This document shows positions 59,926-62,687 of a DNA stretch of 64,000 bases, piece after piece (the first letter of the stretch is position 1; each line of letters opens with the position of its first letter). Location of the stretch: positions 577,543-641,542 of the forward strand of contig CAVQJH010000015.1 in NCBI GenBank assembly GCA_963712795.1, read 5' to 3'. A program made the translations under genes and the position numbers. The notes under the pieces are model-generated. The model had not been told where the DNA came from and did no database searches. It was given only the letters and a program-made list of their open reading frames with translations. The stretch is from an uncultured Pseudomonadota bacterium (GTDB taxonomy: Bacteria; Pseudomonadota; Gammaproteobacteria; Steroidobacterales; Steroidobacteraceae).

Positions 59926-61737
59926 CTACAAAAGATCGCCGGAAATGCCCCCACCTCCGTACATGCCGGAAAAGAATCCCATGAGCAGAGAGTAAAGCTG
60001 CACAAAATGACCTGGCGGACGTTCTCCTTTCTTAGCCGCGGACAGGACATCTTCGACTGCCTTTCGACTTAGAGAATCCGTGACGATCACAACTCGTCGG
60101 ATGGTATCCGGCGAGACAGCGGTATCGCGTGCGCAATCGACAAACGCCGCGAATACTCCCCTGATCATTCGATGAATCTGAGTCTGCTGTCCGTCATTGA
60201 TGTAGGTACGCTCCCACTTGTTACGCTTACTGTTCACCGCGTCTGCCGTAAGTCGAACATGCTGCAGATTCTTTATCGCCTGACCAACCGAAACGTGAAA
60301 CGCGCTTGCGCTCAATGAAAGATCTCCGTGCTTTGCGTGGTAGAACGTCAGGGTATTTGGCTGAGCGCTTACATTGATCCCAACAAAATCCGCCCACTCA
60401 TCTCCTAAGTCATCACAAGCCAATACCTCATCCTTTGCGGCCAGACTGTTCACGACGACGCTGAACACAGAATCGTCATCGAATCTTTTATGGGCTGTCG
60501 AGAAACTTCCCTTCTCACTAACTGTGGCCGTCAGCCGCTGATTTTCGTGCAAGTACCCCAACAATGCCTCTCCACCATCTTTAAGTGACGGATCCCGATA
60601 CAGTGAGCCGCCAAGATAGACGATGTCGATCTCGCTGAAGAGAACCGTAAACCACTCGGAACGATCGATGTAGCGACGTAGAGGTTCCAACGCCTCGGAT
60701 TCTCCTGGAGTATCGAGTTCCTGAATGAATACATCCTGCATGATGACGAGCTCGAAGCGCCTGAGGGAAATCCTAGTCTTTCCAATTCGGATTTCCCCTA
60801 TATGTTTAATACCGCCGGTATCAAAGACTCGGAATTCTCCTCGGCTCTCTCGTACTTCAAAATTTCCGCTAAGCGCCTCAACGAGATCCTTAGTCTCTCT
60901 TTCGGACAAGAGTACGAACCCATTTGGGTTCTTTCTGCCCAATCGAAGTCTCACCGGCTCTTCAAAAAGTGCGTCGCTTATAGCTGCTACGTCAATAGCA
61001 ACCGCAACTGGCTTCACATGCCGCGGAAATGCCGCGAGGTCCATGGGACGGGCAAAATTCCGAATGAAAGGCGATAGCGTCACTCCCTTCTGCGTGAGCC
61101 TATCAATTACATTGGTAGACCACGTAATCAACTCTGTATGAGAAACCCTTTCCGATTTTGTGGCAATCCTACCGGTCCTGGGAGTCGCTGAAAAATGCAT
61201 ACTTGAATCGCGCGTGCGAAATCCGGATGGCACATAGCGGCTCGAACCAGAAGGACTGAGGACCGAGCGTAGATCGTCCGCCTCCAATACCTTTGCTCGC
61301 ATAGCATGTTTTGAAATGGTCATGTTCCGAAGTCGAATCTGCTCAAACGTCGCATCCACTCGGGCGGTCGCTGCCTCGACGTTCTCCGGGCCAACGGCGC
61401 GCAGATGAGCGCTCCTGAACGATGCCGGGAGATCGATTCCGGATTTGAACACCGCAATATGATTCTTGTATTCAACCAGAAGGATGAAGCCACATACCTG
61501 CTCACGGCGTTCATTAGGCGGCAGTTCCAAAAACGACGGCTCTCTGTCGTAGAAGAAGGAGATGGCAGACCACAGGGCCTGCTGATGCCTCTCGTGAATA
61601 TGATGGAAAATGTTTATCGAAGGATCAGCGGCAGCCAGCCGTACCGCTCTGAAGGCGCTGGATATCGCGTTCTTGGACACGCGCCCGGCGGATTTATAGA
61701 AATTGCCCGTCTTCGAATGTACAAGCCAGTCAATCAT
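59926..61737 (-). CDS. large hypothetical protein (603 aa), lower-GC, no recognisable domain; candidate accessory/defence gene
   Basis: Long ORF with AT-richer codon usage (~50% GC) than the host core. No Walker A, no nuclease/protease/kinase motifs recognised. Flanked by the mobC/relaxase and a DUF3800-like gene. Confidence 0.5.
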   Translation of the reverse strand: MIDWLVHSKTGNFYKSAGRVSKNAISSAFRAVRLAAADPSINIFHHIHERHQQALWSAISFFYDREPSFLELPPNERREQVCGFILLVEYKNHIAVFKSGIDLPASFRSAHLRAVGPENVEAATARVDATFEQIRLRNMTISKHAMRAKVLEADDLRSVLSPSGSSRYVPSGFRTRDSSMHFSATPRTGRIATKSERVSHTELITWSTNVIDRLTQKGVTLSPFIRNFARPMDLAAFPRHVKPVAVAIDVAAISDALFEEPVRLRLGRKNPNGFVLLSERETKDLVEALSGNFEVRESRGEFRVFDTGGIKHIGEIRIGKTRISLRRFELVIMQDVFIQELDTPGESEALEPLRRYIDRSEWFTVLFSEIDIVYLGGSLYRDPSLKDGGEALLGYLHENQRLTATVSEKGSFSTAHKRFDDDSVFSVVVNSLAAKDEVLACDDLGDEWADFVGINVSAQPNTLTFYHAKHGDLSLSASAFHVSVGQAIKNLQHVRLTADAVNSKRNKWERTYINDGQQTQIHRMIRGVFAAFVDCARDTAVSPDTIRRVVIVTDSLSRKAVEDVLSAAKKGERPPGHFVQLYSLLMGFFSGMYGGGGISGDLL

Positions 61738-62064
61738 GATTGCTCATGCTATCGGGGCTGGAAGCCCGCCAGGGAACACCGGCAGGTCTGTTGTCTTGGT
61801 ATTCCGACGCTGCAAAAGTATATTCCTTGAAAGCGCACGCATCGAAGATCCACAATGGAAACTGAGACTTCAGTCCCAGTGAATACTCTTCTCAGTAACC
61901 GGCGAGTCCGCGACGCGGATAAGCAACATCGCTGCTGAAGGAGCTACTTAATGCGCAAACGATCAAGAAGTTCACGACTACCTTTGAATGGCGTTGGTCC
62001 CCGGATTTGAACGCACGGCCGCGGCCCCGGCGACCCTAAGATCCGATTCCGGTAAGCGAAATCT

Positions 62065-62687
62065 ATGTTGACAGCTTATTTAGACGAAACAAACACGCAC
62101 GAAAGGGGAGAAATTATAGTTATCGCGGGATTCATTGCCGACGCGACCTCCTGGGCCGCTCTGGATGTGAAGTGGCGGGAGATCCTCCGCAACGTCGGTA
62201 TGCCATACTTCCATGCCGTCGAATGTGAAGCTGCAAAGGGTGTATTCTCAACGCTGAACCGACATTTAAGAGAAGCCTTGTTCCGCGGGCTCGCAGGTGT
62301 TATAAGCGGGTGCAAGTTGACCGCCATCAATGCCGCGCTATTTCGCTCGGACTGGAATAGGTTCAAAGACGGGATTCTGGAGCGAGATATGAAACCCCGT
62401 ATCACTTCTGCTTCGAGCATTGCATTCAGATTGCAGCTACTTGGTCTAGGACGTACGGGGGGCATAAGCCGGTCCAACTCATCGTGGCGGAGCAGGACGA
62501 GTAACATCGGTTTCGCGCGCACAAGTCCTTCAGCGATAGGTACAAGCGGGATTACCGTGGCGAAACGGAACTAGGGCCACTGGTATTCCTTTCCCCATTC
62601 AAATGCTCGGGACTGCAGGCCGCTGATCTGCTTGCATATGAAACACGGGTGGCTTCGGTTCTTAGGACAGATTTCTCATCGGGATAA
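62065..62687 (+). pseudogene. DUF3800-like gene, apparently frameshifted (N-terminal MLTAYLDETNTHERGEIIVIAGFIAD… in frame 1; C-terminal …YKRDYRGETELGPLVFLSPFKCSGLQAADLLAYETRVASVLRTDFSSG in another frame)
   Basis: The N-terminal YLDE(S/T) motif and the C-terminal ADLLAY…R motif are both DUF3800-like but lie in different frames. A G7 homopolymer at ~62466-62472 is a plausible slip site. The frame-1 ORF tail (…RSRTSNIGFARTSP…) looks like out-of-frame junk. Confidence 0.45.

Follow-up and report, generated by a model that had tools for sequence, protein, structure and literature searches.

We analysed a 64,000-nucleotide stretch of DNA from an uncultured Pseudomonadota bacterium of the Steroidobacteraceae (contig CAVQJH010000015.1, positions 577,543 to 641,542; here called the window). 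The locus of interest holds a gene for a 603-amino-acid (603-aa) protein of the PDC-S71 family and, divergent from it, a disrupted gene of the DUF3800 family. The features of the locus are as follows.

59926-61737, minus strand: open reading frame (ORF) of the PDC-S71 family, 603 aa, from its translation
60538-61737, minus strand: N-terminal region of about 400 residues with repeated beta-alpha-beta-beta-beta units, from the predicted structure
59929-60480, minus strand: C-terminal domain with a predicted restriction-endonuclease-like (PD-(D/E)xK) fold
60331-60411, minus strand: putative active-site block with the codons for D443, E447, D450, H467 and K469, from invariance across the family
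59728-59754, minus strand: terminator-like hairpin (stem of 11 bp) lying between the stop codons of the PDC-S71 and relaxase genes
61738-62064, no strand assigned: divergent intergenic region of 327 bp, between the 603-aa gene and the DUF3800 gene
62065-62649, plus strand: DUF3800 (RNase H-like) pseudogene, whose stitched product matches PF12686

Both genes lie in a low-GC block of 2.9 kb (59755-62649; GC content of 0.525 versus 0.647 for the window), and in the GC profile the hairpin at 59728-59754 forms its left edge. GC content at third codon positions (GC3) is 0.548 for the 603-aa gene, compared with 0.76-0.84 in neighbouring core genes. A preliminary description of this DNA had placed a 603-aa ORF of AT-richer codon usage at 59926-61737, about 330 bp from a divergent gene, with an IS3 element downstream. 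Each of these points was borne out: the ORF is on the minus strand, its composition differs as stated, the spacing is 327 bp, and orfB and orfA of an IS3 element lie at 62807-63978 (minus). Except for two indels, the intergenic region can be aligned to that of a metagenome contig with the same two genes (L001), and promoter-like matches within it were not in excess over shuffled sequence.

The 603-aa protein matched nothing in scans of Pfam, NCBIfam and PHROGs, and PDB sequence searches with full-length and C-terminal profiles returned only noise. The preliminary description had found no recognisable motif in the protein, which holds for Pfam, NCBIfam and PHROGs but fails in PADLOC, where the protein matched PDC-S71 (model PDLC05077; E = 1.3e-108, 362 bits) over residues 2-589 of the protein and positions 4-573 of the 589 in the profile. 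A PADLOC search had been proposed there as a check on defence candidacy, and the match it gave runs from end to end. The gene is thus a full-length member of PDC-S71, a widespread single-gene family listed by PADLOC as a phage defence candidate (PDC). The PDCs are 145 untested candidates of Payne and colleagues, drawn from genes that occur inside BREX, DISARM and Type I restriction-modification (RM) systems (bioRxiv 10.1101/2024.01.29.577857). Homologues of PDC-S71 fall into at least 752 clusters at 90% identity (about 604 aa), and there are 1187 representatives at 50% identity (414 at E ≤ 1e-30; nearly all 585-615 aa). These representatives range over Acidobacteriota, Alpha- and Gammaproteobacteria, and plasmids of Bacillus and Mycobacterium, and the genome loci that we found are in Acidobacteriota, many Alphaproteobacteria, Pseudomonas and Enterobacterales. 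All homologues bearing a source name are labelled "hypothetical protein".

An AlphaFold2 model of the 603-aa protein had a predicted local distance difference test score (pLDDT) of 86.6, and the model of the C-terminal domain one of 88.6. The C-terminal domain is predicted to contain the alpha-beta-beta-beta-alpha-beta core of the restriction-endonuclease-like fold. Likeness figures for the predicted structure were highest with FokI (7.4), followed by N.BspD6I (7.1), CdiA-CT EC869 (6.9), HamA (6.1), R.BspD6I (5.7) and Shedu SduA (5.5); next in the same list were NucS, AspBHI, LlaBIII, SdaI, NucC, McrC, Can2, MspJI, HindIII and Hjc. In the model, D450 opens core strand beta2 and K469 closes beta3. 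The catalytic residues of FokI are D450, D467 and K469, with the same spacing as D450 and K469 of the 603-aa protein. The middle acidic position of this triad is His467 in the window protein and Val in a fused relative from B. japonicum. D443, E447, D450 and K469 are invariant across 56 family members and the helicase-fused and S41-like fusion variants described below, and E408-K409-G410, K489-N490 and R523 are likewise invariant between stand-alone and very distant fused forms. From this conservation pattern, the site may be a PD-(D/E)xK variant whose acidic residue has been relocated, with D443 and E447 as possible substitutes. A relocated acidic residue is found in the active sites of some restriction enzymes, such as Cfr10I.

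The same residues bear on whether the domain cuts at all. It could keep the endonuclease fold in a non-catalytic form, in which case the protein would bind DNA and serve as a scaffold or sensor, recruiting or activating further factors. His467 at the acidic position of (D/E)xK, together with Val in the fused relative, would suit such a protein, as would a DUF2235/Tle1-like hydrolase translationally coupled upstream in about 13 loci, which is possibly the real effector there. However, D443, E447, D450 and K469 are strictly invariant in very distant members, as would be expected of a relocated-acid active site, and most members have no partner gene. On balance, we regard a non-catalytic role as quite unlikely. 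The N-terminal region of about 400 residues showed weak similarity only, to RdgC, the NRD domain of RnlA and TBP-like folds. Because it contains many conserved Arg and Lys residues, our guess is that it forms the nucleic-acid recognition or sensor part of the protein.

To place the family in genomic context, we scanned the flanking ORFs of 80 genome loci and of L001 (81 loci in all). Relatives of the 603-aa gene occur among Hachiman, CBASS, Lamassu, Septu, Dpd, Bil and methyltransferase/helicase genes. When 90 large neighbouring ORFs taken from about 60 loci were searched against defence models, many matched strong ones (HamB, CBASS cyclase and E1-E2, LmuB, PtuA, DpdF and PDC-M01A). Homologues of about 60% identity are flanked either by methyltransferase, helicase and UvrD-PDDEXK genes or by Bil, DUF488, DuOB and integrase genes. 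No methyltransferase is conserved next to PDC-S71 in the 81 loci, and none is present in the window. The commonest neighbour family occurs in 17 of the 81 loci and no family in more; no DUF3800 ORF lies near PDC-S71 in the 83 more distant loci examined for it (see below), and PDC-S71 thus needs no obligate partner. These contexts fit a solitary, DNA-directed defence nuclease, without proving one.

Searches of plasmids with tblastn revealed that the whole PDC-S71 module also follows an N-terminal ResIII/DEAD helicase of superfamily 2 (SF2). On B. cereus plasmid NZ_CP139215, a 999-aa fusion (L089:4835-7831) matched the PDC-S71 hidden Markov model (HMM) with E = 8.9e-32 over residues 441-995, and its gene adjoins Hachiman (DUF1837 plus helicase) and gajA of Gabija. 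On B. japonicum plasmid NZ_CP066352, a 1023-aa fusion (L090:4775-7843; HMM E = 3.3e-41) is encoded directly downstream of mobC and a relaxase gene, the same slot as that of the window gene. Both are annotated only as "DEAD/DEAH box helicase family protein", and against other PADLOC models the fusions gave only weak helicase-domain matches (DinG, PbeA and DpdF). A second arrangement occurs in about 13 alphaproteobacterial loci, where an upstream gene for a DUF2235/Tle1-like alpha/beta-hydrolase overlaps the PDC-S71 start by 4 nt; it lies at L010:6820-8004 and in the same position in L019, L024-L026, L029, L035, L038, L043, L057, L061 and L066. This coupled form could be a two-gene variant of the system. 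Separately, the metagenomic protein P0184 (1018 aa) carries the PDC-S71 module at residues 433-1017 behind a signal-peptide-like N-terminal start; its N-terminal motifs LDLRGNSGGY and DNGCASACE resemble an S41 peptidase by eye, and a gene-call fusion is possible.

Some of these contexts would also suit a protein that does not act against phages, either a nuclease that excludes or competes with rival plasmids or integrative and conjugative elements, or a selfish, addiction-type nuclease beside transfer genes. The window gene lies directly past a NikA-relaxase module, the helicase-fused B. japonicum relative directly downstream of mobC and a relaxase gene; integrases and resolvases are common neighbours of PDC-S71 relatives; and neither phage records nor PHROGs gave a match to the family. 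On the other hand, many loci adjoin bona fide anti-phage systems, and no immunity or antitoxin-like small partner is conserved in the flanking-ORF scan. The two readings also overlap, because mobile elements typically carry defence genes. We consider a function serving the mobile element itself unlikely, and favour the defence nuclease.

In the window, the 603-aa gene stands next to the remains of a mobilisation module.

57548-59706, plus strand: mobilisation module remnant (Pfam)
57548-57913, plus strand: HTH_17 gene (Pfam)
58091-58684, plus strand: NikA-like gene (Pfam)
58677-59351 and 58846-59706, plus strand: MobA/VirD2-type relaxase gene split over two frames (Pfam)

The frame of the relaxase gene changes at about 59190-59198, inside the conserved motif HTDQAHPHVH, and to judge by its sequence this gene is another pseudogene in the same element. 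Apart from PDC-S71 itself, no gene within about 10 kb matches a PADLOC defence model, with the exception of a weak helix-turn-helix match to mad1. The defence-embedded context holds for the relatives and not for this window. The preliminary description had proposed defence-island cargo: the gene is indeed a full-length member of a PADLOC candidate family, but its surroundings are a degraded mobilisable element and not a defence island. As part of the overall interpretation, the 603-aa gene is probably low-GC cargo just past the relaxase gene of this decaying element. Elsewhere in the window, a diverged relaxase-like remnant (19703-20249, minus) is 65% identical to 59233-59633, and a 79-bp stretch matches 56920-56998 with 82% identity. 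Both are near a tRNA-Cys gene (16620-16690) and a HipA-family kinase gene (18336-19583), which suggests an older related mobile element.

Damage is also evident in both genes of the low-GC block. We compared the 603-aa gene with its counterpart in L001, and judged the lesions of the DUF3800 gene by a three-way DNA alignment with the intact copies in L001 and L086.

59967-59968, in the minus-strand PDC-S71 gene: +1 insertion (GG on the plus strand, single G in L001), which shifts the reading frame of the last 14 codons
62378/62379, DUF3800 gene: 1-bp deletion after 62378, the actual frame change (GG, where L001 and L086 have GGG)
62502-62504, DUF3800 gene: nonsense codon (TAT to TAA)
62507-62511, DUF3800 gene: 5-bp insertion
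62535, DUF3800 gene: +1 insertion
62553/62554, DUF3800 gene: -1 deletion after 62553
62567, DUF3800 gene: +1 insertion

The window PDC-S71 protein consequently ends in ...FFSGMYGGGGISGDLL, compared with ...FFSACTEVGAFPAIFCRP in L001, each followed by the stop codon. The family consensus of this C-terminal tail is SACxEVGAxxYVVCQE, and even the helicase fusions conserve the terminal strand that the window copy has lost. The tail that replaces it is modelled as disordered, with pLDDT below 50 for the last residues. Because the +1 frameshift removes this conserved strand, the window copy is probably impaired.

The preliminary description had recognised a DUF3800-like gene with its two termini in different frames, and this proved correct. 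The N terminus (MLTAYLDETN...) and the C terminus (...LQAADLLAYETR) are encoded in different frames, and the stitched product scores 26.7 bits with the Pfam DUF3800 model, above its gathering cutoff of 21 (E = 1e-5), whereas the unstitched 169-aa ORF alone gave no Pfam DUF3800 match. Intact homologues are annotated PF12686. The family has been linked to type VII retrons and to a branch of Cas12a2, with a predicted RNase H-like fold (PMC7736814 and PMC10910872), and both of its described motifs (PMC7736814) are present: the N-terminal DE (YLDETN) and the C-terminal QxxD (LQAADLL). L001 has an intact 240-aa copy, and a second intact copy, P0121, which is 90% identical to the L001 protein, occurs in L086-L088. 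The slip site had been assigned to a G7 homopolymer; the run is in fact a G6 (62457-62462), lies in frame and encodes Gly-Gly, also found in P0121, and the frame change sits instead at 62378/62379. Homology to DUF3800 ends at about 62644-62649, with about 47 C-terminal codons missing. On this alignment the gene is a true pseudogene: it carries five indels and a TAA stop and is truncated at its 3′ end. Because the lesions are many and independent, they point to gene decay and not to a sequencing error or a programmed frameshift.

Sequencing or assembly errors at short homopolymers could nevertheless be imagined to have produced the frameshifts, with both genes intact in the organism. Both the base gained by the PDC-S71 gene, in a 2-nt run, and the first of the lesions in DUF3800 (GG for GGG) are indeed single-base homopolymer changes. 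However, the DUF3800 gene also has the TAA substitution, the 5-bp insertion, three more indels and a replaced 3′ end, and the lesions cluster in the mobile-element remnant, relaxase gene included. In other parts of the window, very long ORFs are unbroken, one of 2549 aa among them, which argues for good assembly quality. Error is thus highly improbable as the source of the frameshifts. Because the relaxase gene is also split and the very long ORFs are intact, the lesions look like real decay of a mobile-element remnant.

We then considered whether DUF3800 and PDC-S71 form a conserved pair. L001 has the same divergent arrangement, with 91% DNA identity to the window over 2.85 kb, and the pair is probably present as well in the population represented by L085 and L087 (119-bp exact contig-end overlap; spacer of about 1 kb). 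All pair-bearing copies share 85-91% DNA identity with the window. Conserved pairing, a check named in the preliminary description, fails beyond this near-identical module. A tblastn search of the 80 genome loci with the intact DUF3800 protein found no DUF3800 ORF close to PDC-S71. Likewise, an HMM built from 23 DUF3800 sequences reaching down to 25% identity detected no DUF3800 ORF at a distance of up to 6-8 kb from PDC-S71 in 83 more distant loci (the 80 genome loci, of 37-51% identity, and three loci of about 60% identity). Regarding the contig L085 itself, whose PDC-S71 homologue is 89% identical, its ends (24-141 and 3176-3293) are perfect 118-bp inverted repeats, which either arose in assembly or mark the termini of a small mobile unit.

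These data argue against a two-gene defence system in which DUF3800 would be an RNase H-like sensor, antitoxin or co-effector expressed divergently from a control region shared with PDC-S71, the window copy having been inactivated. Such a system would accord with the arrangement in L001, where the 240-aa DUF3800 gene is intact, with the similar arrangement suggested in L085/L087, and with the ties of DUF3800 to type VII retrons and a Cas12a2 branch (PMC7736814 and PMC10910872). Yet the copies count as one inherited module, a single inheritance event, because they are 85-91% identical in DNA throughout, and the DUF3800 HMM found nothing near PDC-S71 in the distant loci. Moreover, the DUF3800 subfamily has only 22 detectable homologues, the intact protein matched no PADLOC model, and PADLOC classes PDC-S71 as a single-gene candidate. 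We therefore judge the two-gene system very unlikely. Within the overall interpretation, the adjacency is probably inherited linkage in one narrow lineage, and the DUF3800 neighbour a dead bystander.

Downstream of the DUF3800 pseudogene lies the IS3 element, and the intergenic region holds a fragment that had been likened to a tRNA 3′ end.

62807-63634, minus strand: IS3 orfB (rve, rve_3 and HTH_21)
63631-63978, minus strand: IS3 orfA (HTH_Tnp_1)
61989-62012, minus strand: tRNA-3′-end-like 24-mer, GTTCAAATCCGGGGACCAACGCCA, from its T-loop-to-CCA pattern

The two IS3 ORFs are in different frames and overlap by 4 nt, as in the IS3 family; they have distant matches to annotated IS3 transposases, and distant plasmid matches were limited to transposase genes. 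No second IS3 copy was found in the 64-kb window. The element probably starts near 62650 and runs past position 64000. Its near end is placed there from the point at which DUF3800 homology stops, 157 bp before the orfB stop; this point is probably the IS3 end. As for the 24-mer, the sequence is present with canonical T-loop-to-CCA spacing (1 match, 0.05 expected). However, neither ARAGORN nor Rfam detected it, it is unlike the 3′ end of the tRNA-Thr in the window, its CCA reads TCA in L001, and 241 million metagenome records contained no exact match to the 24-mer or to a 20-mer. These findings against a tRNA origin outweigh the spacing evidence for it, and the old integration junction that the fragment had been taken to mark accordingly lost its support.

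As a whole, the observations are best explained, in our view, by PDC-S71 being a stand-alone nuclease of predicted restriction-like fold, present here as an impaired copy in a decaying mobile element beside a dead DUF3800 neighbour; we hold this to be probable, though well short of certain. In such a protein, the N-terminal alpha/beta repeat region of about 400 residues would recognise nucleic acid, and the C-terminal PD-(D/E)xK domain, predicted to resemble the FokI cleavage domain in fold, would cut it, with D443, E447, D450 and K469 putatively acting in catalysis. A DNA-directed role is suggested because the PDC-S71 module is fused behind ResIII/DEAD SF2 helicases. Since no cognate methyltransferase is conserved nearby, the target may be modified or foreign DNA, in a Type IV-like manner, or the protein may serve as an abortive-infection effector.

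Several points weigh against this interpretation: (i) His or Val stands where (D/E)xK has its canonical second acidic residue, and the C-terminal domain could be catalytically atypical or inactive; (ii) the N-terminal region has no confident structural relative; (iii) the window has no other defence genes near the 603-aa gene; and (iv) PDC-S71 was not mentioned in the literature searched, the family being a candidate only, for defence and for nuclease activity alike. The locus itself is of little weight, a damaged copy of a catalogued candidate gene within a dying mobile element. For the family, with its 1187 representatives, the analysis supplies a concrete and testable mechanistic hypothesis, namely a FokI-like PD-(D/E)xK domain with four invariant residues (D443, E447, D450 and K469). 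The alternative architectures, helicase fusion and DUF2235 operon, back a nucleic-acid-directed defence role, and the hypothesis opens a short path toward validating one of the 145 PADLOC candidates. More speculatively, PDC-S71 could represent a new class of single-chain antiviral nuclease in which an undescribed sensor of about 400 residues gates a FokI-like domain. Evolution would have reused this cassette in several settings (on its own, after SF2 helicases and within the DUF2235 operon), with DUF3800 as an accessory in one acidobacterial lineage. We offer this idea tentatively and lean somewhat against it.

Two further regions of the window encode large proteins. The intact 2549-aa ORF (3942-11591, plus) has a two-partner-secretion (TPS) domain and 13 DUF5649 repeats and is a two-partner-secretion exoprotein. 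Downstream of tRNA-Thr, three consecutive large ORFs of 584, 874 and 200 aa occupy 51440-56379 (minus). None had a significant match in Pfam or PADLOC; the 200-aa ORF had a marginal match to a PHROG family of unknown function (E = 4.6e-4), and Ser, Thr, Gln and Ala abound in the 874-aa product.

Compared with known systems, the locus lacks the adjacent cognate methyltransferase of classical Type II and Type IIS RM systems, which is absent from the window and not conserved in the 81 loci. FokI-type Type IIS enzymes and the Type IV enzymes of the MspJI/AspBHI type differ from the PDC-S71 protein, which has no sequence similarity to them, no cognate methyltransferase, His or Val at the middle acidic position, and an N-terminal region unrelated to known recognition domains. 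Membership in HamA (Hachiman, DUF1837) was rejected (hhalign probability of 0.2%, with no helicase gene adjoining the window gene). As for the nuclease effectors SduA (Shedu) and HamA (Hachiman), the window gene lacks a HamB partner, and its protein matched neither DUF4263 nor DUF1837. The window DUF3800 shares the YLDETN and LQAADLL motifs with the DUF3800 proteins of type VII retrons and the tetratricopeptide repeat (TPR)-DUF3800 proteins associated with Cas12a2 (PMC7736814 and PMC10910872), but no reverse transcriptase, noncoding RNA, TPR or Cas gene is found here, and the window copy is a pseudogene. SF2 helicase-nuclease fusions of the Type III Res-like kind are approached by the distant relatives in which a ResIII/DEAD helicase precedes the complete PDC-S71 module, whereas the window protein has no ATPase or helicase. 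The closest counterpart is PADLOC PDC-S71, itself a candidate family. The window copy differs from it in its frameshifted tail and in lying in a mobile-element remnant and not inside BREX, DISARM or RM, and agrees with it in its full-length match, its size of about 600 aa and its occurrence as a gene alone.

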